A DNA stretch of 61,359 nucleotides, counting the filler. It is 5 parts of 5 records of this genome, joined end to end, with 100 filler letters (N's around TTAATTAATTAA, not from the genome) between each part and the next. Parts side by side here need not be neighbours in the genome. Positions count along the whole stretch, not along the records: positions 23,084 to 40,007 come from SRR31156797_22766; 4 more parts are not named here. One strand, given 5' to 3'. The notes beneath the pieces are model-generated. The model saw only the letters and a program-made list of their open reading frames with translations. It searched no databases and was not told where the DNA came from. The translations under genes and the position numbers were made by a program. Of this stretch, positions 2,123-35,559 are shown one piece after another. Position 1 is the stretch's first letter. Each line of letters begins with the position of its first letter.

Positions 2123-2124
2123 GA

Positions 2125-15954: not shown

Positions 15955-15984
15955 TTTAAGGGTGTTTTAATGATTGCCTCGGTG

Positions 15985-17474: not shown

Positions 17475-17528
17475 TTTTTGAACTATAGCTAATACATCTT
17501 GTTCATTTTTTAAACTTAATAAGTAACA

Positions 17529-18287: not shown

Positions 18288-18341
18288 CACAAATAAATTT
18301 ATTCTCCCACAAATACTATCGATCTCACAAATTCAACGACT

Positions 18342-18959
18342 ATGCCAAAAACAATTTTTCCAGAATTAAATCATCGGTTTAAACAACAACTCGATTTTAT
18401 AATTGAAATTGACCGTCTCAAAAAAGTTGTACGTCAAACCTTGTTAATGGATTCATCAAAACAGGAGAATGATGCAGAGCATTCGTGGCATATGGCATTA
18501 TCTATCTTGTTATTAGAAGAATATGCAATCTTAAAAAATGTTAATTTATTAAAGTCGGTGAAAATGGCATTGATTCATGACATTGTAGAAATTGATGCCG
18601 GAGATACTTTTGCATACGATGAAAAGGCGCACCATGATAAGACGGAAAGAGAAATGAAAGCTGCAGATCGTATTTTTGGTTTGCTGCCCGAGGATCAATA
18701 TCTGAGCTATAAAAATTTATGGTTGGAGTTTGAAGAAGGTAAAACTCCTGAAGCTGCATTTGCAGGAGCTATAGATAAATTTATGCCAATTCTGCATAAT
18801 TATATCACAGAAGGAAAACAATGGAAGAAGCATAAAGTAACAGCAGAAATGGTACTAAAAAGAAATGCACCTATAAAAAATGGATCGGTGGTTTTATGGA
18901 GTATAGTTGAAAATTTGGTTGATGATGCTGTTGTAAAAGGATATCTGCATAGGGAATAA
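18342..18959 (+). CDS. HD-domain hydrolase (HDDC2/YGK1-like 5'-deoxynucleotidase type)
   Basis: EIDRLK.V.RQT, ENDAEHSWH, HDIVEIDAGDT, W.EFE...TPEA.FA.AID. Confidence 0.88.
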   Translation: MPKTIFPELNHRFKQQLDFIIEIDRLKKVVRQTLLMDSSKQENDAEHSWHMALSILLLEEYAILKNVNLLKSVKMALIHDIVEIDAGDTFAYDEKAHHDKTEREMKAADRIFGLLPEDQYLSYKNLWLEFEEGKTPEAAFAGAIDKFMPILHNYITEGKQWKKHKVTAEMVLKRNAPIKNGSVVLWSIVENLVDDAVVKGYLHRE

Positions 18960-19071
18960 AATGGATTTTAAGTATTACACCCTTAATCTGGTAAGCTAAA
19001 ACAAATTATAAATAATAAAATTAACTTTTGCCATAAGTATAGATTATGGTATTTTTGAACAAAATGTAAAA

Positions 19072-19404
19072 ATGGAGAATAAGGATAATAGATGGGAAGA
19101 GCTGTTGCTTAAAGTGAGTAAGCAATTTAATGTATTGGCAGATTTTGATTTTTTACTTTTTTTAGTCGGTATACAAGAAAAAGGTTCTGGCTTTATTAAA
19201 TACTCCAAGGAGGAAAAAATGGATTTAATCAATTTGGCAAGATGTATTTTATTTGAGAAAACCGGTTATTATAAAAAAGAAGGAGAAGATGAAGCTGGCT
19301 GGCCTGAGTTTGCCGTAGTTAAAGATGTTAAAAAGCTGTTGCCATCAGAGAGGGAAGCTATTTTAAAGGAGGCTATGATGTCCTACTTAGAAGATAAATT
19401 ATAA
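19072..19404 (+). CDS. Conserved-looking hypothetical protein
   Basis: LFLVGIQE.G....YSKEEKMDL, GYY...G.DE.GWP pattern; co-oriented with the downstream operon. Confidence 0.75.
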   Translation: MENKDNRWEELLLKVSKQFNVLADFDFLLFLVGIQEKGSGFIKYSKEEKMDLINLARCILFEKTGYYKKEGEDEAGWPEFAVVKDVKKLLPSEREAILKEAMMSYLEDKL

Positions 19405-19419
19405 TAAAAACATAAACCT

Positions 19420-20286
19420 ATGAAGAATTTGGTTTTTCTGTGCAGCATTATTTTGTTGCTTGGATTTACAGCATGTTCGCAAGATGTTACAGAACCCATT
19501 GTTTTAATTAAAACCAATGTGGGTGATATTAAGCTTAAGCTATATAACGAAACACCTGCACATCGCGATAATTTTATAAAGCTGGCTAAAGAAGGATATT
19601 TGGATAGTACTATTTTTCATAGGGTGATTAAGGATTTTATGATTCAGGGTGGTGACCCGAACTCCAAAAATGCTAAACGAGGAGAAGTTCTGGGAGAAGG
19701 TGGTCCTGATTATACTTTGCCGGCAGAATTTCATTATCCTCAGTATTTTCATAAAAAGGGCGCTTTGGCTGCTGCGAGACAATCGGATGCTGTAAATCCT
19801 GAAAAGCGATCCTCTGGTTCTCAGTTTTATATAGTGCAGGGAGAGCTGATTGAAGATTCGGAGCTTAATAAAATTGAACACCAAATGCGTGAAATGAAGC
19901 GAAGGGAAATTTTTAATGAGTTGCTTTTGCAATATGAAGATTCCCTAAATATGTTGCAAAAATCTGGTGATCGAAATAAAATGATGGCTATGCAGCAAAG
20001 TATTATGCAGGAAGTGAATAAAAAATATGGAGAGAATCCAGAGTTTAATATCCCTGATGAAGTAAAGGAAGTATACAAAACTGTTGGAGGAACTCCTCAT
20101 TTAGACGGAAGTTATACTGTTTTTGGAGAAGTAATTGAAGATAAAAATATCATTGAAAAGATAAAATCCTGGTTTGGTAAAAAGTATGGATTTGAGGTAA
20201 TTGACATCATTGCTAATGAAGAAAAAGATGCCAGAAACAGACCGTTCAAGGATATTCGTATGGAAGTAAAAGTGATTAAGGAGTAG
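19420..20286 (+). CDS. Cyclophilin-type peptidyl-prolyl isomerase, lipoprotein, with helical insert
   Basis: Lipobox FTAC; TPAHRDNF, FHRVIKDFMIQGGD, SGSQFYIVQG, PHLDGSYTVFGEV. Confidence 0.92.
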   Translation: MKNLVFLCSIILLLGFTACSQDVTEPIVLIKTNVGDIKLKLYNETPAHRDNFIKLAKEGYLDSTIFHRVIKDFMIQGGDPNSKNAKRGEVLGEGGPDYTLPAEFHYPQYFHKKGALAAARQSDAVNPEKRSSGSQFYIVQGELIEDSELNKIEHQMREMKRREIFNELLLQYEDSLNMLQKSGDRNKMMAMQQSIMQEVNKKYGENPEFNIPDEVKEVYKTVGGTPHLDGSYTVFGEVIEDKNIIEKIKSWFGKKYGFEVIDIIANEEKDARNRPFKDIRMEVKVIKE

Positions 20287-20290
20287 GTGT

Positions 20291-21094
20291 ATGTTGAGAT
20301 CAGTATTGTTTTTATTATTGTTTTTAAGTGTTTCCGTTTACTCTGGAGCACAAAGCAGGTATGTAATTATAACCACCAACTTGGGCGATATTAAAATAAT
20401 GCTGTATGATGATACGCCTAAACATCGTGATAGCTTTATTCAACTAGCGAATGAAGGGCATTTTGATGGAACCTTGTTTTATCGTGTGGTCAAGAATTTT
20501 GTCATTCAGGGAGGATCTTCCGATTCAAAAAATGCACCGGCAGGTAAACATATTGGTTACGGTAGTTTCAAATTAAATATCGATTCTGAGTTTAGAGAAA
20601 ACCGCTATCACAAAAGAGGGGTGATATGCGCCCCGCGACAACCGGAGGATATTAATCATTTTAAAATGTCCGATGTAAGTCAATTTTATATTGTACAAGG
20701 AAAAGTATATACCAACGAAGAACTGGATTTGTTGGAGAAGGCAACGAACAATCCGATTAAAATAAAGCTTAAAAAGAAATATTATCTTCCATATAAAGAA
20801 GAACTGCAAAAACTGAAAACAGAGAATCCCAAGGAGTTTAATCGCCGGTTACGCGAGATAAAAGAAAAGATCGCTTTTGATTATGCACTCTCTAATAAAC
20901 TTGAATTTACAGAAGAGCAAAGGAAGGTTTATACAACCATAGGCGGTTTGCCGGAATTGGATGGAGAATATACTGTATTTGGAGAAGTAGTTAGTGGAAT
21001 GAGTGTGGTCAATAAAATAGCGGCTCTAAAGACCGATAAAAATAGCAGACCCTTTACAGATGTGAAATTGGTAGTTAGGGTTTTAAAAAAATAG
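20291..21094 (+). CDS. Cyclophilin-type peptidyl-prolyl isomerase (secreted)
   Basis: Signal peptide; FYRVVKNFVIQGG, SQFYIVQG, LDGEYTVFGEV. Confidence 0.9.
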   Translation: MLRSVLFLLLFLSVSVYSGAQSRYVIITTNLGDIKIMLYDDTPKHRDSFIQLANEGHFDGTLFYRVVKNFVIQGGSSDSKNAPAGKHIGYGSFKLNIDSEFRENRYHKRGVICAPRQPEDINHFKMSDVSQFYIVQGKVYTNEELDLLEKATNNPIKIKLKKKYYLPYKEELQKLKTENPKEFNRRLREIKEKIAFDYALSNKLEFTEEQRKVYTTIGGLPELDGEYTVFGEVVSGMSVVNKIAALKTDKNSRPFTDVKLVVRVLKK

Positions 21095-21097
21095 TTT

Positions 21098-22393
21098 ATG
21101 CGTATCGTAGGAGTTTTATTGTTTTTATCGCTACTTATTGGGTGTAAACCCAAAACACAAAAAAGCACTATTTCTAAAGAAGAATATGAACGCCCGAAAG
21201 GTTCCTATAAACGAAATATAAAGGGCATCGTTTCTATTGAAACTTTTGATCATTACAATAGGGTGTTAAATCAGGGTTATGGATTTTATATTGACCCTTA
21301 TCATTTGGTAACTAATCTGGATCTGATTAAAGGAAGTTATAAAGCCAAAGTTTCACCGGTTGGAACAGATGATTTTCAGGATGTGGCAGGTTATACGGCT
21401 TATGATATAGACAAGAATCTGGTTATTTTAAAATCATGGCGTGAAAACCTGAATTATCTGCATCTGGATAAATCCATCAAGTCAATTCCTGATTCATTAG
21501 CTAGTCTGTATCGACGAAGTCGCAAATTATATGCACCTAAAACCGGTGTTTCAGTTGTTGCAAATGACAGCGTAAAAGAATTTGTGTTAACAGAGGATTT
21601 AAAACCGGGATTGCCGGCTTTTACTTTTTTGCATCATCTTGTGGGTTTGGTTCAATCACAACAAACGGATAGTGGAAATATTTCTGTGCTAATTCCTTCT
21701 GTTCAAATTCAGAAACTGGCAAAGCAAAATACTAAAGATCCCAAATCAATTTATGGGCTCAGACGCAAAACAAACAAGGTTTATCCTTCTTACAAAAATA
21801 TAAAGGGCTTTAGAATAGTTACAACAGAGGGAAATATTGATATTCGTTTGTACAATGAAACGCCTGTATTCAGAGATAATTTTATCAAACTTGTCAGTGA
21901 TCAGTTTTACGATAGCTTGTTGGTGCATAGGGTGATTAAAGATTTTTTAATTCAAACTGGTGCGGCAGATAGTAAACATGCCAAAAAGGATGACGTAGTG
22001 GGTTGGCAGGGACCAGGTTATAACCTGAAAACAAATATCGTAAAAGGGCTTTTCCATAAAAGAGGAGCGGTGGCAGCTTCAAAGATGCCACCGGAGCGAA
22101 ATCCTAGAGACCGATCGGATGGCTCACAGTTTTATATTATTTCTGGTAGGGTTTTTTCAGAGGGTGAATTAAAAGATATTGAAGAAGAAAAAGGATATCG
22201 GTTTTCACAGCAACAAAAGCAAGTGTATAGCACAGTTGGAGGTGCACCTCATTTGGATGGTGATTATACCGTTTTTGGAGAAGTCACCAATGGGATGGAT
22301 GTCGTGGATAAAATAGCAGGAGTAAAAACTTACGCTGTGGACAGGCCTGTAGACGATATTCGAGTGTTGAAAATAGAGATTTTAAAAAAATAG
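21098..22393 (+). CDS. Lipoprotein: degenerate trypsin-like domain plus C-terminal cyclophilin
   Basis: Lipobox LIGC; IVSIETFD...QGYGFYI...LVTNLDLI resembles a trypsin-2 N-lobe; C-terminal HRVIKDFLIQ, GSQFYII, PHLDGDYTVFGEV. Confidence 0.8.
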   Translation: MRIVGVLLFLSLLIGCKPKTQKSTISKEEYERPKGSYKRNIKGIVSIETFDHYNRVLNQGYGFYIDPYHLVTNLDLIKGSYKAKVSPVGTDDFQDVAGYTAYDIDKNLVILKSWRENLNYLHLDKSIKSIPDSLASLYRRSRKLYAPKTGVSVVANDSVKEFVLTEDLKPGLPAFTFLHHLVGLVQSQQTDSGNISVLIPSVQIQKLAKQNTKDPKSIYGLRRKTNKVYPSYKNIKGFRIVTTEGNIDIRLYNETPVFRDNFIKLVSDQFYDSLLVHRVIKDFLIQTGAADSKHAKKDDVVGWQGPGYNLKTNIVKGLFHKRGAVAASKMPPERNPRDRSDGSQFYIISGRVFSEGELKDIEEEKGYRFSQQQKQVYSTVGGAPHLDGDYTVFGEVTNGMDVVDKIAGVKTYAVDRPVDDIRVLKIEILKK

Positions 22394-22512
22394 AAAGAAT
22401 TAACTATGTAGCCTTTGTTGCCAGGTTCCTTTCTTTTTAATAAAAACTAAGCGTGTAATTGTTTGCTTTTATTAAATTTGCAAACTTAAATGAACGAAAA
22501 ATAGAGCCAGCA

Positions 22513-22983
22513 ATGCTTGACAGAATAAAAGCTTTACAGGAGGAAATTAAACAGCTAACGGCTAAATCGGCAGATGAAGCAGAACATCTGCGTATTAAAT
22601 ATTTAAGTAAGAAGGGAATTATCTCTGAGTTATTTAATGAATTTAAAACGATACCGAACGAGCAAAAGCGTGAAGTAGGTAAGGTTATCAATGTGCTTAA
22701 AAATGAAGCACAGGATATAATCAATAACCTTAAAGAAGGATTTAGCAATACGCAGGTAAAAGGTACCGGTGTTGATTTAACTTTGCCGGGAACCCTAATG
22801 AAATTAGGTAGTCGTCATCCGCTTTCATTAGTAAGAAATGAAATTGTAGATATTTTCAGTAGACTTGGTTTTAACGTTTCTGAAGGACCAGAAATTGAAG
22901 ATGATTTCCATGTATTTACTGCTTTAAATTTCCCTGAAGAGCACCCTGCCAGAGATATGCAGGATACTTTCTTTATTGAGAAA
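22513..22983 (+). CDS. pheS: Phenylalanine-tRNA ligase alpha subunit, 3'-truncated
   Basis: RIKYLSKKG, DLTLPG, GSRHPL, GPEIEDDFHVFTALNFPEEHPARDMQDTFF; TAAATTTG promoter box at 22473-22480 supports ATG 22513. Confidence 0.95.
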
Positions 22984-23083
22984 NNNNNNNNNNNNNNNNN
23001 NNNNNNNNNNNNNNNNNNNNNNNNNNNTTAATTAATTAANNNNNNNNNNNNNNNNNNNNNNNNNNNNNNNNNNNNNNNNNNNN
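22984..23083. other. Artificial contig spacer
   Basis: N-run with TTAATTAATTAA. Confidence 0.98.
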
Positions 23084-23380
23084 TGCATAGGCCTTGATGC
23101 TCTCTCCCACCTGGAGGGCGAGTTCACGGGTGGGGGCCAGGACAAGGGCCCGGGGATGCCGCCGGCCTTTCCCGTTACCGTCCTGGCGACTCAGGAGTTC
23201 AACCAGGGGAAGTCCGAATGCGTCTGTTTTTCCCGTGCCGGTCTGGGCCCGGGCAAAAATGTCCCGTCCGTCGAGAATAGCGGGAATGACCCGGGTCTGA
23301 ACAGGGGTGGGGGCGGTGTAGCCCTTGGTTTTAACGGCTTTTAGCAGTTCGACCCGGAGGCCAAGTCCATCAAATGACAT
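23084..23380 (-). CDS. DEAD-box RNA helicase (RhlE-like), 3'-truncated
   Basis: Q motif GY..PTPVQ, AQTGTGKT, LAPTRELALQ. Confidence 0.9.
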
Positions 23381-23595
23381 ATGATATATCCTGAATGTTC
23401 TCTCAATTTTCATGTTTCAGCATACCGGCACAACCTGTCTGGGCCGATATTCAACAGCATCAGGGGCTTATATCATAATTGAATGAGAATGTCCCCGTAT
23501 TTCCGCAACCTGTAGCCGACCGAACTCCCCTGCCCCTGACGGTCCGGTTTTCTCCGCTCAATCAATGCCCCGGCCACGGTTGAACTTGTGGGGTA

Positions 23596-25101
23596 TTATT
23601 TATCATCACCCAGGATCAAATTTGGATCACGTCTTTTTATATAGGCGATCAATTGCTTTGCCATATTTGAATCGGCTTTGATCTCTATATAATAGATTGC
23701 GACATTATTGAGATATTGAAAAATGATGGCATCCCCGCCATTCGGCATGGCACCCGGTAAAATCCCGCTGAAGAAAAAACCCAGGTTTTCAATTTCCTCT
23801 GAAAAACAAGGGGTCAATGGATCGGAAAGATTGAGGTATAAGCTTATCACTTCTATTCTTTTCAGACACAGTTCCTTTAATCTTTTCCGTATTTCCCCAA
23901 CCGTGTCCCTGCCGTACTTTTCAATTTTGATACGGGCAAACCCCATTGAATTCATAACCTTGATTTGAACAACGGATTCATTGGAAAGCGTCGTCTCCCC
24001 GGGCGACAACGCTTTTTTCATAACAGGTGAAATTTTCAAATGCCCATAAATTTTTTCTATCATGGCCGTATGATTGCGGGGGGGATAAATTTCCGGTTTT
24101 GCGGACCTGTCAAAATATAAAAAGCAAAAAAAGACACTGCCCCTTTGGGAAACCATCTTTTCCATGCCTTTGAAGTGGACACTGCCGGGGATATATCCGA
24201 CCAGCAGCGCACATTCTCCAAGGTTGTAATTCGTGACCGCCTTTTGGGAGTGGGTATGAAGGGTCACGGCCTGGCCGTAAATTCCCGTCAGTTTGTCGAA
24301 TTCCGCTTTTTTAATCAGGAATTCAACCAGTCTGTTGAAGCAGCCCTGTGAACGGAATTCCGGTTTTACCACACCCAATCCGATCTCTGCGATACGATCT
24401 TCCCTGTTTTCATAATGAAGCGCGCAATGGCCGGCGATCTCATCTGTTTCGGTGACGGCCACGGCGGAATACAAAACCTTGTTTTTATTCAGTTCGATCA
24501 GCTTTTCAGGATAATAGACATGCTCATGGGGATAGGTATAACGGTACCCTTTATACAGGCATTTTGACACCTCGATGGCCTCTCCGGGTCTCAAAGGCCT
24601 TACGGTACAATTGATATCCAAGGGAGAGGTCTGTTCCGTTTCCGGGGAGTCATAAAGATCCAGTTCGCAAGCGTTATAATAGTTGGTTATCCTGTTCTGT
24701 TCGGAATACTTGACCAGAACGATTTCCTTACCTTCCGGCCCCAGATTATGAAACACGATTTCATCGATATCTTTTTTCAAATGGAGTATTCTTGACAATC
24801 CTTCCGGTTCATCTTCTTTCAACTGGGAGGGATCAAAGGGCAGCCCTTTGTCTTTGATCACGATTTTAAAGCCCTCCGGCACGATTTCACAAGACACCTC
24901 TATGGATACCTTATCCTGATCATTGTAGGTATAATCAATCACCCATGACACGGCCTGCTCCGTACAATGCATGATTTTTTGGACATTTGTTTCATCAAAT
25001 CCGAATTTTTCCGCAACCGCCCCCGTATATTTGCCTGCGATTTCCGCATACTTGAAATCGATGGGAATCACAATCCTGGAATATTCACATCTTACTTTCA
25101 T
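23596..25101 (-). CDS. RsbW-like HATPase domain fused to a GNAT acetyltransferase domain
   Basis: N-terminal IKDKGLPFDP...IDEIVFHNLGPEG; central AEIGLGVVKPEFRSQG acetyl-CoA motif. Confidence 0.75.
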   Translation of the reverse strand: MKVRCEYSRIVIPIDFKYAEIAGKYTGAVAEKFGFDETNVQKIMHCTEQAVSWVIDYTYNDQDKVSIEVSCEIVPEGFKIVIKDKGLPFDPSQLKEDEPEGLSRILHLKKDIDEIVFHNLGPEGKEIVLVKYSEQNRITNYYNACELDLYDSPETEQTSPLDINCTVRPLRPGEAIEVSKCLYKGYRYTYPHEHVYYPEKLIELNKNKVLYSAVAVTETDEIAGHCALHYENREDRIAEIGLGVVKPEFRSQGCFNRLVEFLIKKAEFDKLTGIYGQAVTLHTHSQKAVTNYNLGECALLVGYIPGSVHFKGMEKMVSQRGSVFFCFLYFDRSAKPEIYPPRNHTAMIEKIYGHLKISPVMKKALSPGETTLSNESVVQIKVMNSMGFARIKIEKYGRDTVGEIRKRLKELCLKRIEVISLYLNLSDPLTPCFSEEIENLGFFFSGILPGAMPNGGDAIIFQYLNNVAIYYIEIKADSNMAKQLIAYIKRRDPNLILGDDK

Positions 25102-27038: not shown

Positions 27039-27677
27039 TCATCCACCTTTCTGATAAATCCCGACAAAGAGCGCCTTTCCTTTTTTCAGGGAAATGGTCT
27101 CATGCCGCAGCACCCCCAGGCCGGTTTTATCACAGAGACCTGAGAACTCAAAGGGAGACACCAGCTTCATGATGGGCGCAAGAAGTTCCAGGCTGGCGTA
27201 TGGCGTCGGGGTAACGGATGCGGATTCGGGACTCGGCAGCTGGAGCGCAGCCACCAGGATACCTCCCGGAGTCAGGCACCTGTCGATTGCAGGCACGGCC
27301 TCCCGGATATCTACATATTCAAATACGAGTGCAGCAAAAACCATCGAAACCGGTTCGATATGAAAAGATAATGAAGTAAAATCAGCCTCAATCAACTCAA
27401 GGCCGGAGATTGTTTTTGAAAACCTGTCTTTTAGAATCCCCAAGTAGGCAGGGTTGATGTCAACACCCACAACACGCCGTGTTCTTGTTGTGTCAACGTG
27501 CTCAAAACCGTTGCCCGTCGTACACCCCATCACCGCCAAATCGGATGGAAAAAACTCCGCAAGCACCCCGGCGAACAGCGCATTTAATGCCTGAAGCTGG
27601 GCGACATCGGGCGAAGCCATATGTGCTTCATAATCGCCCGCAGGAATCTGAATCCATGGATTATTCATTTTCTTCAT
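27039..27677 (-). CDS. Class I SAM-dependent methyltransferase-like protein
   Basis: NPW..I...DYEAHM, AVMGCTTGNG, VGVDINP.Y. Confidence 0.75.
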   Translation of the reverse strand: MKKMNNPWIQIPAGDYEAHMASPDVAQLQALNALFAGVLAEFFPSDLAVMGCTTGNGFEHVDTTRTRRVVGVDINPAYLGILKDRFSKTISGLELIEADFTSLSFHIEPVSMVFAALVFEYVDIREAVPAIDRCLTPGGILVAALQLPSPESASVTPTPYASLELLAPIMKLVSPFEFSGLCDKTGLGVLRHETISLKKGKALFVGIYQKGG

Positions 27678-28278
27678 TTTTATTTTTTTTACTTAAATCG
27701 TCTTTATAACAATCAAATGTTGTCCATCCCATAATAAAATCCAACAGTTCTCCCGGATTAAAGCCCAATCTCATATTTATAAGAGCGCCTGCCACCAAAT
27801 CTATTTGGGAATAATATGGCCATGGATTGTGGTTCCATTGCATGTCTTTTGCTCTTCCTTTCCATTCAGGTACGGTATGTGGATTGACAGTATAAGAAAT
27901 TGGGCCTATCTGGGTTGCCGAAAAACTTTTACCTCGCCTGTTGGACTTGAGAGAGCCTCCAAAGACTTCCGCGCCAACGATCCCCCCGACAAGATCCACT
28001 TTTGCAGGCGTATCATAGCCACCTGGCCAGAATTCCTCACCCCCTAAATAATCCCCTCCCCTCAGTCCTCCCATACCAACATCCATTAAAAGCCCTGTCT
28101 GGAGAGGTCCGATTCGTCCCTTGGCTCCGAAGCCATAGCCCACCTGGATTGAAAATATATCAAGTGCGTCATCGTACCGGTCCGAGAAATAGCCTGCAGA
28201 TGAATATTCATATCCTGTCAGGGTTAATAATATCAAATAAATCAATAGCTTGAAAAAGCACCTCAAATAGCCCCCCAT
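27661..28278 (-). CDS. Hypothetical exported or membrane protein
   Basis: Signal-like N-terminus, Gly-rich beta pattern, GFNPGELLDFI.GW near the C-terminus. Confidence 0.65.
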   Translation of the reverse strand: MGGYLRCFFKLLIYLILLTLTGYEYSSAGYFSDRYDDALDIFSIQVGYGFGAKGRIGPLQTGLLMDVGMGGLRGGDYLGGEEFWPGGYDTPAKVDLVGGIVGAEVFGGSLKSNRRGKSFSATQIGPISYTVNPHTVPEWKGRAKDMQWNHNPWPYYSQIDLVAGALINMRLGFNPGELLDFIMGWTTFDCYKDDLSKKNKNEENE

Positions 28279-28358
28279 CGAGCAGCTACAAGCATCTGTT
28301 TTTCAAGTTCAAAGTTTTTTTTATAGAAAATCGACTTGAAATCAATGAAAACCATGTT

Positions 28359-29795
28359 TCACGCCAGGCGATCCTTGAGGATTTCCTGGATGAGTTTGGG
28401 ATTGGCCTTGCCCTTGGAGAGTTTCATGGCCTGGCCCACCAGGAACCCGATGGATTTCTTGTTTCCGTTTTTGTAATTTTCCACTGCAGAGACATTATCT
28501 GCTAGGATCTTGTCGACTATTCTTGCAAGTTCTGCCGTATCGGAGACCTGTTTGAACCCGAATTTCTCGACAATCTCTTCCGCTGTTCCGTCGGTGTCAA
28601 AGAGCTTTTCCAGCACGGATTTGGCTGAGTTTGAGTTGATCTCGTTCTTTTCGAGCATCCGGATCAGGCCTGCGAACCGCTGGGGGGTGATAGCGGATTC
28701 TGCCAGGGTTTGGCCATGGGCTTTCAGTGCGGGAAGGAGCTGGGTGGCGATCCAGCCGGCGGCCATGCGGGCGGGTGCGCCAAGGTTGACAACGGCTTCA
28801 AAAAACTCGGAGAGTCCCCGGTCCGAGGCCATGAGCACGGCTTCATCATGGATCAGTGAATAGTCCCGGACAAACCGGTTGACCTTCTGGGCGGGCATCT
28901 CCGGCAGCAGGGATTTCATCTTTTCGAGCCAGGATTCGGTGAGGACGATCGGGGGAACGGAGGGATCGGGAATGCAGGGGCCTTCGAACTTGGCCCGCAT
29001 GGCTGTGGTGACACGTTTTTCAGGATCCCAGAGCCGGGTGTGCAACACGATGGGTTCGTTGTTGTTGAGGGCGTCGATCTGGCGCTTGATCTCATAGGCA
29101 ATGGCGTCCCCCACATGGTGGATGGAGTTCATGTTCTTGACCTCCACCTTGGTGTTGAGCTGGTCCGTGCCTGCCGGGCGGATGGAGATGTTGGCGTCGC
29201 AGCGCATGGTGCCGGATTCCATGCTGCATTCGGCGCAGCCCGTGTACCGGACCTGGTTCCGTACGGCCTTGAGGAGTTCCATGGCGTCATGGGAGGTTCT
29301 GAGGTCGGGTTCCGTCACCACTTCGACGAGGGGGGTGCCGGCCCGGTTGAAATCCACCAGGCTCACGGGAATCCGGCCGTCGGTTTCATGGACAAGCTTT
29401 GCCACGTCCTCTTCCATGTGAACGTGGTGGAGCCTTAGTTTCCTGGGGTTCCCCTGCTCGTCCCGGATCTCCACCCAGCCGCCCCTGCCAAGGGGCTTGT
29501 GGGCCTGGGAGAGCTGGAACCCCTTGGGAAGATCGGGGTAGTAGTAGACCTTCTGGTCAAAGGCGCTTTCCTCCTGGATCTCGCAATTGAGGGAGAGGCA
29601 GGCAAGGGTTGCCTTTTCCAGGACTTTCTCGCCCAGGACCGGCAAGGCGCCGGGCATCCAGAGGCAGACGGGGCAGACATTGGTGTTGGGGTCGTCGCCC
29701 GGGCTGTTGGCGCAGTCGCAGAACATCTTGGTGGCTGAGTTGAGCTGTATGTGGATTTCAAGACCGATTACCGCTTCATGTTTCATGGTTGGCAT
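28359..29795 (-). CDS. gatB: Asp/Glu-tRNA amidotransferase subunit B, divergent
   Basis: IGLEIHIQL, FCDC/CPVC, YPDLPKG, HMEED, DFNRAGTPLVEVVTEPD, RCDANIS, EVKNMNS, YqeY-like tail (GFLVGQAMK.SKGKANP). Confidence 0.92.
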   Translation of the reverse strand: MPTMKHEAVIGLEIHIQLNSATKMFCDCANSPGDDPNTNVCPVCLWMPGALPVLGEKVLEKATLACLSLNCEIQEESAFDQKVYYYPDLPKGFQLSQAHKPLGRGGWVEIRDEQGNPRKLRLHHVHMEEDVAKLVHETDGRIPVSLVDFNRAGTPLVEVVTEPDLRTSHDAMELLKAVRNQVRYTGCAECSMESGTMRCDANISIRPAGTDQLNTKVEVKNMNSIHHVGDAIAYEIKRQIDALNNNEPIVLHTRLWDPEKRVTTAMRAKFEGPCIPDPSVPPIVLTESWLEKMKSLLPEMPAQKVNRFVRDYSLIHDEAVLMASDRGLSEFFEAVVNLGAPARMAAGWIATQLLPALKAHGQTLAESAITPQRFAGLIRMLEKNEINSNSAKSVLEKLFDTDGTAEEIVEKFGFKQVSDTAELARIVDKILADNVSAVENYKNGNKKSIGFLVGQAMKLSKGKANPKLIQEILKDRLA

Positions 29796-29797
29796 GG

Positions 29798-31006
29798 TTA
29801 GATCTCTCCTGTATGAATGTTCGATACCCGGGCTGCAAGGGAAAGCAATCGCGCGTCACCAAACCGTTTGCCCATGAGCTGGAGGGCGGGGGCGCCGGGG
29901 ATGGCAATGGCCGGGTTGCCGGTGAGGTTGGCAAGGACGGTCAATGAAAAGGCTTCATAGAGGTCGGCTACCGTGGCTGGCCAGGCCGGTATGGTTCCAG
30001 GGCTGGCGGACACTGGCAGCAGGATCAGGTCTACGGTCTCAAAGGCGCTTTCGACGTGTTTGATGATCCGGGCCCTGGTGCGGCAGGCATCCAGGAAGGC
30101 ATCGTAGTTATGGTACTGGAAATATCCGCCCTGGAACAGGTAGGCCTTGACCAGGGGGCCAAAGGATTCGGCCCGGGATTTGATGTACATGTCGTTCCAG
30201 TTTTTTGCCGGGGCGGAGGTCCTGTGGCCGTAGCGGACACTGTCGAACCTGCCGGCACTGGAGGATGCCTCAACGGTTCCGATCACGTTATGAACGGTCG
30301 GGGCAAGGAGGAAGTCTTTGACGGAAACCTCCCGGATCTTAAGACCGCTGTTGCCAAGTTTGTTCAGGACCTGTTCAAACCCGTCATCCCGGGACATTTC
30401 CCTGATCACGCCCAGGGTGGCGGGGGCATCCAGGAACTCCCGGGAATGGTTGAACTCATACATCACCTGGTCCATGGCGGATGGTTCCATGGTGGGATCC
30501 TTATCATCAAGGCCTGCCATGGCCTGGGCGGTTATGGAGAGGGTCTCCAGGGAGTTGGAAAGGATGCCGCAGCTCTCCATGGACGGAACAAGGCCGATCA
30601 TGCCGGCCCGGGAAACGAGGCCGTAGCTGGGCTTGAAACCGAAACAGCCGGCGGCGGCAGCTGCTAAGCGGGCTTCCCCGGTGGTGTCGGTCTTGAGGAT
30701 TACCTGGGAGAATCCCTTGTCCAGGGCTTGAATGTAAGTGTCCCTGCCGGGGCCCAGGCCGAGTTCCCCCATGGGGGTTCTGCCCTTGAGGGTGGCGCCG
30801 GCGTTGCGCAGGCGTTGGATCAGGGTGGCGTCCTCCAGGGCCACATAGTTCTCGAGGGCCGTGGAGTGGGCCGTGGTGGGCCAGCCGGCAACGGATATGT
30901 TGGCGTCAACGGCCACGGCGGTGCCGGCCATGGGGCCGTCCACATGGGGCTGGGGCGAGTCGTCTATATAGGTAAAGATCTCTGATTCCATTGAAAATCC
31001 TTTCAT
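29798..31006 (-). CDS. gatA: GatA-like amidase-fold protein, predicted catalytically inactive
   Basis: DAT...RL..AGA...G.T.M.E, GFKPSYGLVSR.G, EASS..RFD.VRYG.R, ANLTG.PAI; catalytic Lys, cis-Ser loop and nucleophile Ser are absent. Confidence 0.85.
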   Translation of the reverse strand: MKGFSMESEIFTYIDDSPQPHVDGPMAGTAVAVDANISVAGWPTTAHSTALENYVALEDATLIQRLRNAGATLKGRTPMGELGLGPGRDTYIQALDKGFSQVILKTDTTGEARLAAAAAGCFGFKPSYGLVSRAGMIGLVPSMESCGILSNSLETLSITAQAMAGLDDKDPTMEPSAMDQVMYEFNHSREFLDAPATLGVIREMSRDDGFEQVLNKLGNSGLKIREVSVKDFLLAPTVHNVIGTVEASSSAGRFDSVRYGHRTSAPAKNWNDMYIKSRAESFGPLVKAYLFQGGYFQYHNYDAFLDACRTRARIIKHVESAFETVDLILLPVSASPGTIPAWPATVADLYEAFSLTVLANLTGNPAIAIPGAPALQLMGKRFGDARLLSLAARVSNIHTGEI

Positions 31007-31015
31007 GTTTCCCGG

Positions 31016-33133
31016 TTACTCAAGGATGCTTGCCACCTTGAAGTAGTCCCCTTTTACCGACGGAGCGTTCTTGAACAGATCCCCTGACCGGACAAAGGAC
31101 GACCTTCTGGCCGCCCTGCCCTGCCTGAACCGGTTCCGGTTCCCGCTACCGGAAACCGAAATGGCGGGTTCGTAATCACCGGCATTGCCGGAGACCTGTT
31201 CCGCCAGCGTCACCGCGTCCCGGAGGGCGGATTCGATCATGGGGCGTTCATCCTCGTCAAAGCCGATCCTGGAAACCCAGGAGATATGGTCGATGGGGGC
31301 CTGCTCCCGGTCCGTGCCGGGCAGGGTTTCCGCTTTGCCAAGGTCCAGTAGGCCAAGTTCGCTGAGCTGTTCATGGGCCACCCGGGAGGGGGCCTGGGTC
31401 AGGGGACAGTAGGCGCTCCGGTTCTTGGGAAAGGCGGTGACCTCGCGGATGGAGGGAGTCTTCAGAATCATGGCCACCACCCGGTCCATGCCAAGGGCAA
31501 GGCCGCCGTGGGGGGGCGGGCCGAACTCAAGGGCCTGGAGGAAAAAGCCGAACTTCTCCTCCGCCTCCTCCGAAGAGAGGCCCAGGGCCTGGAACACCTT
31601 CTGCTGGGTGGCGGGATCGTGGATGCGGATACTGCCGCCGCCGAGTTCCTCGCCGTTGACAACGATATCATAGGAGCGGGAAAGGAGTGACAGGAGATCT
31701 TCCGGATCGGCGGGATCGAAATCGGTCCGGTCCGGGGCGGTAAAGGGATGATGGCTGGAGGTCACCCCTTCTTCCGTGGGTTCGAACAGGGGAAAGTCGG
31801 TGACCCAGACCGGTGCGAAACCGTCCGGGATCATGCCGAGCCGGTCCGCCACATGGCGGCGGAGACGGCCGAGGGCGGTATTGACCACCTCCGGGGAGGG
31901 ATCGGCAATGATGAGGATCACATCCCCGTCTTCGGCCTTGAACCTTTGGATGACGGCCTGCCGCTCTTCCGGGCTGAAGAACTGGACGATATTGGAATCA
32001 AGGGTGCCGCCGGTCACCCGCATCCAGGTCATGCCCTTGGCGCCAAAGGAGGGAACGATCTGTTTGGCGTATTCGTTCTGGAGGACGTTTTTGCTGAGGC
32101 CCTCCGAGGCGTGCTTCACATTGATCCCCTTGATCACCCCGCCCCGCTGGAGGATCTGCCTGAAGATGCTGTAACCGGTATCCTCGAAAATGTCGGTGGC
32201 CTCGGTAAAGAACATCTCAAACCGGAGATCCGGCCGGTCGGAACCGGTCTTGTCCATGGCTTCCTGCCAGGTCATGCGGGGAAAGGGCCTTGGCAGGGGG
32301 GTGCCGCCGATCTCGAACATCCGGCAAAGCAGCTCTTCGATGGTATCAAAGATGAACCCTTCATCGATGAAGGATGCTTCCAGGTCGAGCTGGGTGAACT
32401 CGGGCTGGCGGTTGGAACGGAGGTCCTCGTCCCTGAAGCACCGGGTGATCTGGTAATACCGTTCAAACCCCGCCACCATGAGGAGCTGCTTAAAGAGCTG
32501 GGAAGACTGGGGCAGCGCATAGAAATGCTTTGGGTTGACGCGGCTGGGGACCAGATAGTCCCTTGCGCCTTCCGGGGTGCTTTTGGTCAGGATGGGGGTT
32601 TCAACCTCGATGAACCCCTTCCGGTCCAGGAAATTGCGAACACAGGCGTTGATTTTGTGGCGCTTGATGAGAAATTGCTGCATGCCCGGCCGTCTCAGGT
32701 CCAGGTAGCGGTACTGGAGCCTCAGGTCTTCGGACACCGGTTCACGGCTTGCGATTTCGCCGCCCACCATGGCTTTTTCGGATATGGTGAACGGAAGGGG
32801 GCCGGACCGGCTGAGGATGGTCATGTCCGAGACAATGATCTCAATCTCTCCGGTCTCGATGTTTGGATTTTCCGTGCCCTGGGCCCGCCGGACGATTTGG
32901 CCGGTGGCGTTGATGCAGTATTCGCTGCGAAGGAATGTTGATCGCCGACAGACTTCGTCAGGGGTGAATTCCGGGGAGAAAACCAGTTGAACGATGCCGC
33001 TGCGGTCCCGGAGATGGATGAAAAGCACTTCCCCGTGGTCCCGGAGGGCATCGACCCAGCCTGCAAGGTGAACGGTTTTACCGACGTCTGCCGGCCCCAG
33101 CCGGCCGCAATTGGATCTGTTATGAAAGAGCAT
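31016..33133 (-). CDS. aspS: Non-discriminating aspartyl-tRNA synthetase with a C-terminal GatC fusion
   Basis: RDHG, STPEGARDYLVPSR, FRDEDLR..RQPEFTQLD, HHPFT, ELGGGSIRIH, PPHGGLALG.DR; the last ~95 aa are GatC-like (IDHISWVSRI...EP...KNAP..KGDYFKVASILE). Confidence 0.93.
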   Translation of the reverse strand: MLFHNRSNCGRLGPADVGKTVHLAGWVDALRDHGEVLFIHLRDRSGIVQLVFSPEFTPDEVCRRSTFLRSEYCINATGQIVRRAQGTENPNIETGEIEIIVSDMTILSRSGPLPFTISEKAMVGGEIASREPVSEDLRLQYRYLDLRRPGMQQFLIKRHKINACVRNFLDRKGFIEVETPILTKSTPEGARDYLVPSRVNPKHFYALPQSSQLFKQLLMVAGFERYYQITRCFRDEDLRSNRQPEFTQLDLEASFIDEGFIFDTIEELLCRMFEIGGTPLPRPFPRMTWQEAMDKTGSDRPDLRFEMFFTEATDIFEDTGYSIFRQILQRGGVIKGINVKHASEGLSKNVLQNEYAKQIVPSFGAKGMTWMRVTGGTLDSNIVQFFSPEERQAVIQRFKAEDGDVILIIADPSPEVVNTALGRLRRHVADRLGMIPDGFAPVWVTDFPLFEPTEEGVTSSHHPFTAPDRTDFDPADPEDLLSLLSRSYDIVVNGEELGGGSIRIHDPATQQKVFQALGLSSEEAEEKFGFFLQALEFGPPPHGGLALGMDRVVAMILKTPSIREVTAFPKNRSAYCPLTQAPSRVAHEQLSELGLLDLGKAETLPGTDREQAPIDHISWVSRIGFDEDERPMIESALRDAVTLAEQVSGNAGDYEPAISVSGSGNRNRFRQGRAARRSSFVRSGDLFKNAPSVKGDYFKVASILE

Positions 33134-33234
33134 AATGCGAGCATCCTTTTTCTATATGAATGAGAATGAAAATCGCCATGTCCCTGAATCCTATAAAAAG
33201 GAAATCCGTTTTTGTAAAGAAAAATATAAAAAAC

Positions 33235-33425
33235 TTGACAGCATTCCACCCCCCCGATAGTTATTCCAGTAAAACTGCGGCAGAAGCCGCTGGAGCAAAA
33301 CTCATTTTTTAAGTAAACAACGGATTCTCCGGTATATTGCCCGGAGAATCTGAATGGACATGGAAGAAAAGGCCACGAAGGTCTGCACCCCCCCCACGGG
33401 GAGGGAGACTTTGCGGCCTTTTTTT
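33235..33425 (+). promoter_or_regulatory. Promoter and structured 5' leader with intrinsic terminator upstream of the TonB receptor
   Basis: TTGACA 33235-33240; hairpins GCGGC-agaa-GCCGC and GATTCTCCGG/CCGGAGAATC; long stem AAGGCC-ACGAAGGTCT...AGACTTTGC-GGCCTT plus a U-run ending at 33425. Confidence 0.55.
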
Positions 33426-33498
33426 ATGAAGTAAAGTCCCCGGCAGCCTGCGGTCAATAATGTCTGAACAGGAAACGATCAAAAAAAAGGGGATTTGG

Positions 33499-35559
33499 AT
33501 GAAAAGAAGTACCTGGCTGATTTTACTATTCACAATTACGATCCTTGGCTGCCCCCCGTGGGCCGGGGCCGAAGAAAAGCAAACAGAGGTTCATCGTCTC
33601 GACGCCGTGGTGATCTCGGCAACCCGCACGGAAACGCCGGTATTTGATACCCCCCAGGATGTCACGGTGATCACCCGCCGGGAAATCATGGCATCGCCCT
33701 TTGAACGGGTGGAAGATATCGTCAGAAGCGTGCCGGGGCTCTACAATTTCCGTCACTACGGCCTCCAGACCAACGGCATTGTAAGCCCCCTCAAAATGCG
33801 CGGGGCCGGCACCAACAAGGTCCTGTTCCTGGTGGACGGCGTGCCCCAGAACGACAACTTCAACAATGCCATTGCCTGGGTGGCCTGGGGGCACATTCCC
33901 AAGGAAACCATTGAACGGATCGAAGTGGTCCGGGGACCGGGTTCGGCCCTTTACGGCTCCGAAGGCCTGGGGGGCGTGGTCCATATCATCACCCGGGAAC
34001 CGGAAAAGGAGCGCCGGACCGCCATCCGGGCTGAGGCCGGCACAGGCGATACTTACATCGGATCGGGCTGCCACAGCCAGACCATCAAGGGCCTGGGGGT
34101 CATGGCGGCAGGCGGGTATGAGGAAAGTGACGGTTTTTACATGACCGACACCCCCGCCCCCTACAACATCAAACGCCACCGGGAAACGGGTAAAATCCTC
34201 GGCAAGGCGACCTATGACCTTAGCCCCTCCTCAAAGCTTGCCCTGGCCGCCCTCTATTACGACCATGAGACAGGAAAAGGCCGGGAATTTTTCTATGATG
34301 AGCTCAATCTTGACCAATACTGGCTGAACTACTCACACACCTTTGATACCATGGAGATCAAAGGATTGCTTTACTTGAACCGGGCCGACAAAACAGCCTT
34401 CCAGGACACGGCCTCAAACAACTACACCACCCTCCTGAGAAAAGAGAAGATGCCATGCACCACCTGGGGAGCGGATCTTCAATCCACCCTCCATCTGGGT
34501 TCCCGGTCCAGCCTGACACTGGGCACCGCGTTTAAGAAATCGTCCTGGGAGTATGACAATGACTATGAAGGAAGCATCCGGGCCGCAGGGGCCAAGGGCA
34601 ACCAGATGTTCATATCCCCCTTTGCCAATGTTGACCTGAAATTCCTTGACGACGATCTCACCGTCAACCTGGGGGGACGGTTTGACCTCATCGAAACCTC
34701 GGACGGCGCCAACTGGGACACCAAGGCAAGCGCGGGCAAGCCCGCCTACCACAATCGGTATGACACGGAGCGGGAGGAAAGCTTTTCTCCCAAGATCGGC
34801 CTTGCCTACCACCCGGACAACCGGACAACCCTGAGGGCCTCCGGTGGAAAAGGATTCCGGGCACCGAGCCTGTTTGAGCTGTACAAGGTCCATGTCCGAA
34901 GCGGCGGCAAATACTACCGCATGGCCAATCCCGATCTCAAGCCCGAAAAAATCTGGTCCTATGACGTGGGAGCAGAGCGGTATCTGACGGATACGATTCT
35001 GGGAAAACTGACCTTTTACCAGGCCTTTGCCAAAGACTACATCGGCGACCGGCTCATGGGCACCGGCACCATCTCCGGGGGCAGGACACGCTACGATTAC
35101 AAGCTGGACAATATCAGCGAGGTGGATATCCACGGCATCGAGGCGGAACTTGAGTGGTCCCCCACACGTGCCATGAAACTGTTCGCCAATTACACCTACA
35201 ACATTTCCAAGGTGGCCAAGGATGAAAACAATGCGGATCTTGAAGGCAACTACCTGCCCAAGGATCCCCGACACAACCTGCATTTCGGCATCAGCTACCG
35301 GAATCCCGGCATCATCAACCTGAACCTCCTGGTCAACTACTATGCGGATATCTACTATGACAATGAAAACACTCTTGAAACAGGTGATTACTGGACCATG
35401 GACCTGGGGATCTCCCGGAAGTTTCATGACCGTTTCACCCTCTACGTGAACGGGGAAAACATTTTTGATAAGGAGTATCCCATTTCCAAATCACTTTCGG
35501 CCGGAGACACCATTTCCCCGGGAGCGATTGTCACGGCGGGAGTGAAATTTGAATTTTAG
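33499..35559 (+). CDS. TonB-dependent outer-membrane receptor (BtuB/CirA-like)
   Basis: Signal peptide, TonB box-like LDAVVISATR, plug LVDGVP.N...IERIEVVRGPGSALYG, NPDLKPE, NIFDKEY, C-terminal Phe. Confidence 0.92.
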   Translation: MKRSTWLILLFTITILGCPPWAGAEEKQTEVHRLDAVVISATRTETPVFDTPQDVTVITRREIMASPFERVEDIVRSVPGLYNFRHYGLQTNGIVSPLKMRGAGTNKVLFLVDGVPQNDNFNNAIAWVAWGHIPKETIERIEVVRGPGSALYGSEGLGGVVHIITREPEKERRTAIRAEAGTGDTYIGSGCHSQTIKGLGVMAAGGYEESDGFYMTDTPAPYNIKRHRETGKILGKATYDLSPSSKLALAALYYDHETGKGREFFYDELNLDQYWLNYSHTFDTMEIKGLLYLNRADKTAFQDTASNNYTTLLRKEKMPCTTWGADLQSTLHLGSRSSLTLGTAFKKSSWEYDNDYEGSIRAAGAKGNQMFISPFANVDLKFLDDDLTVNLGGRFDLIETSDGANWDTKASAGKPAYHNRYDTEREESFSPKIGLAYHPDNRTTLRASGGKGFRAPSLFELYKVHVRSGGKYYRMANPDLKPEKIWSYDVGAERYLTDTILGKLTFYQAFAKDYIGDRLMGTGTISGGRTRYDYKLDNISEVDIHGIEAELEWSPTRAMKLFANYTYNISKVAKDENNADLEGNYLPKDPRHNLHFGISYRNPGIINLNLLVNYYADIYYDNENTLETGDYWTMDLGISRKFHDRFTLYVNGENIFDKEYPISKSLSAGDTISPGAIVTAGVKFEF

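Follow-up and report, generated by a model that had tools for sequence, protein, structure and literature searches.

The textbook case of a glutaminase tunnel-coupled to a synthetase site is provided by the tRNA-dependent amidotransferases. The asparagine transamidosome of Pseudomonas aeruginosa (4WJ3) and Thermus thermophilus (3KFU) contains the same four protein parts as the operon reported here. Fusion of AspRS to one of its partners is covered by NF009460 (PRK12820), bifunctional AspRS/amidotransferase subunit C, an entry that names the fusion only and mentions no dead GatA partner. Extra aspS/gatCAB sets occur in Clostridium acetobutylicum and in Deinococcus-Thermus, where, according to a passage of PMC4206432, the second AspRS feeds the amidotransferase and AsnRS is also present. 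In AtzE/AtzG (6C62), derived from GatA and GatC, a pair of a GatA-family and a GatC-like protein has been reused outside the glutamine-dependent role. We found no published description of an AspRS::GatC operon with a dead GatA in the literature.

The window, by which we mean the whole analyzed stretch of 61,359 nt including filler, contains three intact minus-strand ORFs at 31016-33133 (705 aa), 29798-31006 (402 aa) and 28359-29795 (478 aa), encoding AspRS2, GatA' and GatB2. The gaps between them measure 9 nt (31007-31015) and 2 nt (29796-29797), so that the tight, intact three-gene operon described in the initial annotation is confirmed. The features are as follows.

33134..33459, minus strand: leader upstream of AspRS2, 326 nt, with a 10-bp hairpin at 33350-33323
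31349..33133, minus strand: AspRS2 core, residues 1-595 of 705, with OB-fold anticodon-binding domain, class II catalytic domain and GAD insertion
31019..31348, minus strand: linker and GatC-like tail, forming residues 596-705 of the AspRS2 chain
29798..31006, minus strand: GatA', a GatA-fold protein without the Lys-cisSer-Ser triad and without the glutamine-binding residues
28359..29795, minus strand: GatB2, a complete GatB with cradle, helical and YqeY tail domains and group-specific substitutions

The leader contains no T-box, a scan of 27600-33700 gave no Rfam match at E <= 1 except a chance-level L31 leader, and promoter and terminator scans of the leader stayed at chance level. The order AspRS::GatC-GatA'-GatB2 was observed in all 18 related genome loci, within the reach of their contigs, GatB2 itself being seen in 17 of them, as the contig of locus L004 stops after GatA'.

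Our preferred reading, made from sequence, is that the operon encodes a hard-wired, glutamine-independent complex for Asn-tRNA(Asn) synthesis that would be fed by free ammonia, and we give this reading an even chance of being correct. The first protein, AspRS2, is a bacterial-type AspRS that exceeds the cut-offs of TIGR00459 (677.7 bits, cut-off 373.85) and NF001750 (746.7, cut-off 443), contains the Pfam domains tRNA_anti-codon (OB fold), tRNA-synt_2 and GAD, and can be aligned with T. thermophilus AspRS from residue 9 to residue 596, motifs 2 and 3 being retained. With the ordinary AspRS of the carrier genomes it shares 44-49% identity. Its His33 and Gly86 occupy the positions of H31 and G82 in P. 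aeruginosa AspRS, which we take to be positions of tRNA(Asn) recognition, and AspRS2 would charge tRNA(Asn) with aspartate. The C-terminal tail of 110 residues matches GatC weakly and below cut-off, with 20.8 bits against Pfam GatC PF02686 (cut-off 23, E 4.4e-4), 16.5 bits against TIGR00135 (cut-off 47.1) and, in an hhalign comparison with five canonical GatC, a probability of 20% and E 1.1e-3 over 90 colinear columns. Conservation of the tail extends to 56 AspRS proteins, each about 705 aa long, and a precomputed PF02686 match exists for some relatives. AspRS2 aligns from end to end with the fusion model NF009460 (1-705 versus model 18-723) and scores 1198.5 bits, below the cut-off of 1379. 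Indirectly, the tail encoded at locus L152 supports the GatC assignment, as it matches the profile of canonical GatC (E 4e-18) as well as the AspRS2-tail profile (E 2.8e-10). The fusion that was initially annotated stands as one of AspRS to a tail that is GatC-like by a weak match. By homology, the tail would tether AspRS2 covalently to the GatA'/GatB2 pair; a passage of a review states that GatA requires GatC for folding and for binding to GatB (PMC2330236).

GatA' is a GatA relative that scores under the TIGR00132 cut-off (226.6 versus 481.1 bits) and retains the fold: the best solved match of its AF2 model (pLDDT 88.1, pTM 0.89) is the GatA chain 3kfu_E with a TM score of 0.85, and GatA chains occupy 8 of the top 10 ranks. 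Relative to Aquifex GatA, AVKDN is changed to AVDAN, DTGGSIRQPA to DTTGEARLAA, and about 22 residues including GGSSGGS are deleted. Positions were mapped through a canonical GatA, whose numbering is that of S. aureus +2 throughout. In S. aureus numbering, the triad is lost by replacement of K79 (D34 in GatA') and S178 (E111) and deletion of S154, and the glutamine-binding positions Y309, Y310, R358 and D425 have become H239, N240, Y289 and F353, in agreement with the catalytic and glutamine-binding residues that had been reported missing. R358 is presumably a glutamine-binding residue of S. aureus GatA, and T175, R200 and D211 of the same protein, which we take to line the tunnel, are kept as T108, R133 and E144 in 88%, 100% and 96% of 121 family members. 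Y310 and D425 are named as glutamine-binding residues in a passage of PMC2811023. The GGSSGGS loop is missing from all 121 members, the S178 position is Glu in 99%, Y309 is replaced by His in 100%, R358 by Tyr in 90% and D425 by Phe in 94%, and at the K79 position Lys never predominates (Gln in 73%, Asp in the GatA' analyzed here). Judged by these residues, GatA' cannot hydrolyze glutamine.

This loss was selected and is not strain decay, because all 25 GatA' family rows form a single clade (SH-aLRT 100), 48 columns are invariant among 49 sequences and dN/dS of GatA' is 0.18-0.29. The substitutions and the absence of the triad are family-wide, D107, G110, R113, K125, G129 and R133 are invariant in the family, and on the GatA' profile GatA' and canonical GatA split cleanly across 301 genomes, with at least 300 bits versus at most 230 bits. 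A coordinated loss under selection, as had been proposed from the intact frames, is thus borne out, the neighboring genes AspRS2 and GatB2 having dN/dS values of 0.07-0.15 and 0.09-0.15, respectively. A dead glutaminase in genomes that encode all required activities elsewhere could also point to a regulatory or protective assembly without any amidating role, for example one sequestering tRNA(Asn) or Asp-tRNA(Asn), or to an AspRS paralogue bearing a structural appendage. However, the strong purifying selection on the catalytic residues of AspRS2 and GatB2 and the joint occurrence of the three genes in all 18 loci leave such a role only a slim chance. In the ammonia-fed complex that we prefer, GatA', glutaminase-dead by sequence, would act as the scaffold required by GatB. 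The new, strictly conserved residues E111, H239, H261, W42, W270 and N271 suggest a gained site instead of a mere scaffold.

GatB2 exceeds the GatB cut-off (TIGR00133, 511.9 versus 314.8 bits), matches Pfam GatB_N and GatB_Yqey with 338.4 and 158.1 bits, and is 40-42% identical to GatB1 of the carrier genomes. It keeps E13/H15, K82, Y84 and E128/E129, corresponding to E10/H12, K79, Y81 and E124/E125 of S. aureus, which are metal and active-site positions, as well as the Lys-rich YqeY tail and an undeleted 3_10-turn segment (SME versus KME in S. aureus). According to a passage of PMC2811023, the 3_10 turn of GatB selects U1-A72 tRNAs. About 50 positions of GatB2 are group-specific: the invariant W46, Q81, V83, Y85 and F93 replace canonical G, R, N, F and Y, the invariant V131/A132, H252 and F270/G272/P273/C274 replace canonical A/G, E and E/A/R/Y, and the DYRYF loop is 3 residues shorter. 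The GatB2-specific residues were found in 18/18 GatB2 and in 0/7 GatB paired with a live GatA (5 standalone, 2 AspRS-linked). The changes in GatB2 consequently track the dead GatA and not the AspRS::GatC fusion, which agrees with the earlier description of a kept ATP/metal core with co-varying changes. The sequence features of GatB2 are those expected of a functional tRNA-dependent kinase/transamidase; from its retained metal-, ATP- and tRNA-binding residues, it would use ATP to phosphorylate the beta-carboxyl group and then amidate it to yield Asn-tRNA(Asn).

Altered chemistry, instead of altered ammonia entry, could underlie the changes beside K82 and the loss of residues from the DYRYF loop. 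Aspartate might be activated on the tRNA and receive another nucleophile, or yield another end product, giving a non-canonical aminoacyl-tRNA or a metabolite. In favor of this, the invariant new residues E111, H239, N240, Y289 and F353 of GatA' line the former glutamine pocket, the invariant Q81 and V83 of GatB2 flank the catalytic Lys beside a loop shortened by 3 residues, and the carriers do not need the module for ordinary Asn-tRNA synthesis. We nevertheless consider it very unlikely: no dedicated tRNA gene was found near the operon, no extra odd tRNA was present among the 48 Rfam tRNA matches of one complete carrier genome (G091), the gene neighborhood contains no conserved modifying or consuming enzyme, GatB2 exceeds the GatB equivalog cut-offs, and the fused operon also exists with a live GatA. 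More specifically, the former glutaminase pocket might have been rebuilt as a small-molecule site (the invariant Glu111, His239, His261, Trp42, Trp270 and Asn271) that, together with Q81, V83 and the shorter DYRYF loop of the remodelled GatB2 pocket, would supply beta-phospho-Asp-tRNA with something else than ammonia from glutamine; in its bolder version, a different nucleophile would be delivered and these anaerobes would make a non-canonical aminoacyl-tRNA on tRNA(Asn). This proposal, too, has a low probability in our view. In a milder version, the rebuilt GatA' pocket may capture and deprotonate NH4+ by analogy with ammonium channels.

The operon was present in 39/301 sampled genomes of its class and in 2/301 Spirochaetota, with patchy records labelled Omnitrophota, Auribacterota, Syntrophales and Dehalococcoidia. 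Among the 45 carrier genomes examined it is always an add-on to the canonical set: canonical GatA was found in 45/45. Carriers also have an ordinary second AspRS, a GatB and a GatC, and AsnRS was detected in 36/39 carriers. The suggestion of a paralogous complex, made initially as part of an option that used free ammonium, therefore holds at the gene level. The N-terminal domain of the ordinary AspRS looks the same in carriers and non-carriers. Carrying the operon was not associated with a lack of AsnB-family genes (22/39 carriers versus 28/39 non-carriers, Fisher p 0.24). For Desulfobacterium, Desulfococcus and Desulfatibacillum, a survey from 2014 that covered 547 genera lists a single AspRS and a single GatCAB (PMC4206432).

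The universal presence of canonical GatA in these 45 genomes raises the question whether Asn-tRNA(Asn) is still made with ammonia from a protein encoded elsewhere, be it canonical GatA docking on GatB2, some other glutaminase such as an asparaginase-like one, or AspRS itself, a mycobacterial ND-AspRS being reported to have glutaminase activity in a paper cited in PMC8406222. We regard this as unlikely, and the separate ammonia-generating enzyme envisaged in the initial annotation is unsupported in this class. No conserved fourth gene and no other nitrogen donor is encoded beside the operon across the 18 loci, and asparaginase-domain genes show no excess in carriers (12/39 versus 14/39 non-carriers) and never adjoin the operon. 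The purifying selection on GatA' and its own invariant residues are also hard to reconcile with its replacement by another GatA.

In the complex fed by free ammonia, NH3/NH4+ would pass through what was the glutaminase pocket, now open, and along the retained tunnel, or would enter straight at GatB2. Canonical enzymes use free ammonia poorly. Yeast GatFAB provides a precedent for its use by analogy, as it transamidates with 20 mM NH4Cl, an activity that increased when the GatA site was disturbed by a truncation, according to a passage of PMC4027206. A substrate is also available, since U1-A72 is present in the sole tRNA(Asn) of G091, the two tRNA(Asp) genes of that genome having G1-C72. Since carriers keep a glutamine-dependent GatCAB, an ordinary AspRS and usually AsnRS, the module would be an accessory, glutamine-sparing route to asparagine for ammonium-rich, energy-poor anaerobic habitats, which would save the ATP spent per amide by glutamine synthetase. 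For the same reason, the need for a third Asn-tRNA route is unexplained, and the operon bears on why some anaerobes retain three routes to Asn-tRNA(Asn). If our reading is true, it would provide the first tRNA-dependent route to asparagine that needs no glutamine. A natural and widely conserved form in which the glutaminase is erased but its subunit retained would in addition be a ready system for studying how ammonia enters and travels in GatCAB.

With the asparagine transamidosome, the operon shares a bacterial-type AspRS with GAD, the cradle, helical and YqeY domains of GatB, and the GatA fold, for which 3kfu_E and 4wj3_A are top matches. In contrast to the transamidosome, its GatC lies within the AspRS chain, its GatA, shorter by about 80 residues, has neither the triad nor the glutamine-binding residues, its GatB carries the group-specific positions, and it coexists with a canonical set. 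The extra aspS/gatCAB set of C. acetobutylicum is reportedly T-box controlled; the operon differs from such T-box-controlled aspS-gatCAB operons of Firmicutes in having no T-box. AtzE, whose chain 6c62_A matches the GatA' model, is an active amidase for another substrate, whereas the operon has lost the amidase site but still encodes GatB. As in AsnA compared with AsnB, the chemistry of a glutamine amidotransferase would be run on free ammonia, and an NH3-dependent form exists also for NadE. Unlike in AsnA and NH3-dependent NadE, where the glutaminase part is wholly absent, the dead subunit is retained and conserved in the operon. Genomes with AsnA are described in a passage of PMC2330236 as making Asn-tRNA in a "glutamine-independent fashion". 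At L152, AspRS::GatC is followed by a GatA with intact triad and by GatB, and the dead GatA form descends from a live one. As such fusions with live GatA exist, the initial label of a candidate new system is an overstatement, and the operon derives from the AspRS/GatCAB transamidosome that is already known.

The three genes of the operon lie close together on the minus strand of the window:

31016-33133, minus strand: AspRS with a GatC-like C-terminal tail (AspRS2), 705 aa, intact open reading frame
29798-31006, minus strand: triad-less GatA look-alike (GatA'), 402 aa, intact open reading frame
28359-29795, minus strand: GatB of the operon (GatB2), 478 aa, intact open reading frame

Gaps of 9 nt between AspRS2 and GatA' and of 2 nt between GatA' and GatB2 confirm the tight operon with undisturbed frames that was described in the initial annotation. 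AspRS2 is a complete bacterial-type AspRS with OB fold, class II core and GAD domain that scores above the curated thresholds of both TIGR00459 and NF001750 and aligns over residues 8-596 with the enzymes from T. thermophilus and P. aeruginosa. Identity to the ordinary AspRS is 44-49%. The alignment places His and Gly at two positions of P. aeruginosa AspRS that, as Bernard et al. in 2006 are said to have found, matter for tRNA(Asn) recognition in this species. The proposed fusion to GatC was borne out in part: AspRS2 aligns end to end with NF009460, the NCBI model for AspRS/GatC fusions, but its score remains below the cut-off of the model and the C-terminal tail of 110 residues matches GatC only weakly in profile searches and with hhalign. 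The strongest evidence that the tail is a putative GatC comes from a metagenome locus (L152), in which the tail of AspRS matches the canonical GatC profile and also the AspRS2-tail profile. The predicted fold of full-length AspRS2 had a mean pLDDT of 62.3, with parts of the catalytic core below 50, and the model is silent on the tail.

GatA' is a member of the amidase family, yet it reaches only 226.6 bits on the GatA model against a cut-off of 481.1. Compared to Aquifex GatA, the Lys of the KD motif is replaced by Asp, about 22 residues including GGSSGGS are absent, and the nucleophile Ser of DTGGS is replaced by Glu. For the family alignment, the window protein and the 120 relatives that ranked best in the database were combined with five canonical GatA sequences from carrier genomes, i.e. 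genomes containing the GatA' operon, and positions were translated via one canonical GatA, the numbering of which is S. aureus +2 at each landmark. Within the family (n=121), the K79 equivalent is Asp34 in the window protein and Gln in 73% of the members, the S154 loop is deleted in 121/121, and the equivalent of R358 is Tyr in 90%; K79 and S154 belong to the catalytic triad of GatA and R358 to its Gln-binding residues. The equivalent of S178, identified as the GatA nucleophile in an excerpt of PMC2330236, is Glu in 99% of the family. Y309 corresponds to His in all members, whereas Y310 and D425, both named in an excerpt of PMC2811023, correspond to Asn in 79% and Phe in 94%, respectively. The catalytic and Gln-binding residues are thus replaced or deleted in this alignment, as the initial annotation had noticed for the single protein, and triad loss and substitutions are conserved family-wide (n=121) rather than strain-specific. 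According to an AlphaFold model built on 49 sequences (pLDDT 88.1, pTM 0.89), GatA' is predicted to still adopt the GatA fold; the closest solved structures are GatA chains, with a TM score of 0.85 to 3kfu_E. Beside the lost nucleophile, D107, T108, G110, R113, R133 and E144 are retained, residues that lie where the ammonia tunnel begins.

Selection and not decay accompanied the loss of the glutaminase site, in agreement with the earlier proposal of a coordinated loss. Among 49 GatA' members with 46-88% identity to the window protein, 48 columns are invariant, and many of the invariant residues are new to the family (W42, E111, H239, H261, W270, N271, E280, K287, Q292, Q297). Among relatives, dN/dS was 0.18-0.29 for GatA', 0.07-0.15 for AspRS2 and 0.09-0.15 for GatB2. 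In a quick maximum-likelihood tree with 6 canonical GatA and 5 other amidases for comparison, all 25 of the 25 sampled GatA' sequences fell on one side of a branch with a length of 1.89 and an SH-aLRT of 100. A scan of 1.84 billion representatives yielded 24 clusters (50% identity) at approximately 270 bits or above, some of them fragments, with canonical GatA beginning at 258 bits; an atlas search recovered nothing beyond the GatA' family itself. Additional triad-less proteins, approximately 400-445 aa in length and including one labelled Peptococcales and one labelled Dethiobacteria, score just under the core family, and therefore triad loss extends beyond it. GatA glutaminase activity may have been lost in more than one event. 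Ten GatA-like clusters of approximately 400-476 aa outside the core family (P0203, P0210, P0211, P0239, P0250, P0252, P0257, P0267, P0286 and P0308) have partly or wholly replaced triads, in which the nucleophile has often given way to Glu. A metagenome scan with alignment A6 returned canonical GatA with GGSSGG at 79 of 80 loci.

GatB2, a full GatB, exceeds the curated cut-offs and is 40-42% identical to the separate standard copy, GatB1, of the same genomes. It retains the equivalents of S. aureus E10/H12, K79, Y81 and E124/E125 as well as the Lys-rich tail and an undeleted 3_10-turn segment; according to an excerpt of PMC2811023, the 3_10 turn enables bacterial GatB to select U1-A72 tRNAs. 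Around 50 positions are fixed differently between GatB2 and canonical GatB, including the residues on either side of the catalytic Lys (R to Q81, N to V83). Further changes are G to W46, EEDAGK to EEDVAK and E to H252, and the DYRYF loop, shortened by three residues, reads GPC. L152 (approximately 1-4040) is a live-glutaminase form of the fused operon: its AspRS ends in a clear GatC domain and precedes a GatA with intact triad and a canonical GatB. A second metagenome locus, L192, has genes for AspRS, live GatA and GatB that follow one another as in L152, and the searched open frame of its AspRS gave no GatC match. GatB from both loci has canonical residues at all GatB2-signature positions, so the signature tracks the dead GatA' and not fusion or linkage to AspRS: it is present in 18/18 GatB accompanying GatA', in 0/2 AspRS-linked GatB accompanying live GatA and in 0/5 standalone GatB. 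The retained ATP/metal core and co-varying changes that had been pointed out for GatB are corroborated.

As judged from the sequences, the parts for charging, tRNA binding, activation and amidation are present under strong constraint, and the ammonia generator is the one part missing. According to an excerpt of PMC2330236, folding and the assembly of a complex with GatB require both GatA and GatC, which would explain why GatA' was retained, and yeast GatFAB is described, in an excerpt of PMC4027206, as using NH4Cl, the more so after disturbance of the GatA site. Together with the tunnel-side residues, these points argue for a hard-wired, glutamine-independent complex that synthesizes Asn-tRNA(Asn) from free ammonia beside the Gln-dependent one, a reading to which we give an even chance. 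In such a complex, the assembly, substrate, product and nitrogen source of which we infer, AspRS2 would charge tRNA(Asn) with Asp, GatB2 would bind the Asp-charged tRNA(Asn), activate and amidate the side chain, and free ammonia would replace glutamine-derived ammonia. The new, strictly conserved residues of the former GatA' pocket, together with the substitutions surrounding the active site of GatB2, would also suit another nucleophile or another product, which we consider very improbable, and we attribute an equally small probability to a non-amidating role of the complex.

Genome-level statements on the company of canonical genes rest on genomes of relatives rather than on that of the window. 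The initial annotation had raised the question of co-occurrence with canonical gatCAB, aspS and asnS: in five carrier genomes, a canonical gatC-gatA pair, canonical gatB and ordinary aspS of approximately 600 aa are all present, as are AsnRS (5/5), GlnRS (4/5) and an AsnB-family gene over the cut-off (2/5). Across 301 evenly sampled genomes from the same class, GatA' was detected in 39, with clear separation by the profile (GatA' at least 300 bits, canonical GatA at most 230). In Spirochaetota, the operon is rare (2/301 genomes). Canonical GatA exceeded the cut-off in 39/39 carriers, in 39/39 compared non-carriers from the same class and in five more divergent carriers, amounting to 45/45 distinct carrier genomes. 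The operon is an addition to the canonical amidotransferase and not a substitute, and the paralogous complex suggested earlier as one option is supported at the gene level. Exactly one AspRS copy was found in 39/39 non-carriers; of the 39 carriers, which are draft genomes, 32 showed two copies, 6 a single copy and 1 no copy. A link of the operon to asparagine synthetase or AsnRS was not seen when 39 carriers were compared with 39 non-carriers: AsnB-family genes occurred in 22/39 versus 28/39 (p 0.24), a blunt test because the family includes paralogues that are not Asn synthetases, and AsnRS in 36/39 versus 33/39 (p 0.48). Subfunctionalization of the ordinary AspRS was rejected, since carriers and non-carriers do not differ in its anticodon-binding domain: His occupies the H31-equivalent position in 20/20 carriers and 19/19 non-carriers, and the G82 equivalent is Gly in 12/20 versus 13/19 (p 0.74; one of 20 non-carrier stretches gave no frame with the search pattern and was left out).

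The order AspRS::GatC, GatA', GatB2 is retained in 18/18 related species-genome loci as far as the contigs reach, with GatB2 visible in 17, as the contig of L004 stops after GatA'. These loci have no fourth conserved gene and their flanks vary. In the window, a 205-aa open reading frame without Pfam match (27661-28278, minus strand), not conserved at related loci, lies directly downstream of GatB2. An ammonia donor protein encoded elsewhere in the genome would be an alternative to free ammonia, but we regard it as unlikely; an asparaginase-like donor was rejected, with asparaginase-domain genes in 12/39 carriers and 14/39 non-carriers (p 0.81) and none adjoining the operon. Of the earlier interpretation, a selected, paralogous module with co-varying GatB stands, but its option of a separate ammonia-generating enzyme found no support in the class sampled. 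A dedicated tRNA partner was likewise rejected: the window contains no tRNA gene, the sole tRNA within 17 related loci is an unrelated tRNA-Phe, and the complete carrier genome G091 has a standard set, with one U1-A72 tRNA(Asn), two G1-C72 tRNA(Asp) and no extra odd tRNA. Locus L092 in G091 gave a weak Rfam match that looks like a tRNA 3' fragment, and at L107 (G135:C1) a tRNA-Glu(CUC) at 7852-7926, minus strand, lies approximately 200 nt upstream of AspRS2 and was not seen at the remaining loci.

The 326-nt leader before AspRS2 matched no Rfam family and hence contains no T-box, and promoter and terminator scans of this region were at chance level. The leader includes a 10-bp hairpin (33323-33350, minus strand) that matches no known RNA family. 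Metatranscriptome contigs from three runs of one marine-sediment study, approximately 93-95% alike, cover parts of all three genes, although they stem from a relative, may reflect DNA carry-over and are uninformative in the uncovered flanks. Elsewhere in the window, positions 14001-24000 form a stretch with a GC content of 0.32-0.41 within DNA of 0.50-0.62, which may represent either foreign DNA inserted as an island or a mis-join in the assembly. It contains genes for BlaR1/TonB_C-like, truncated Ni-insertion (LarC-like), methyltransferase and HD_3 proteins, three tandem cyclophilin-type isomerase genes (19420-22393) and a 190-aa N-terminal fragment of PheRS alpha (22459-23031).

In the literature searched, we found no paper on an AspRS::GatC fusion with dead GatA; published work on the operon of C. 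acetobutylicum and on the residues of the tunnel may bear on its novelty. The phrase 'bifunctional aspartyl-tRNA synthetase' was absent among the literature matches listed, and passages of two reviews that mention both GatC and fusion are silent on such a system. The survey of Alperstein et al. (2014; PMC4206432), as far as its excerpt extends, singles out C. acetobutylicum as the one case with an additional GatCAB and lists three Desulfobacterales-type genera with one AspRS and one GatCAB each. The operon described here represents a derivative of the known transamidosome with a dead glutaminase, conserved and accessory to the canonical enzymes.
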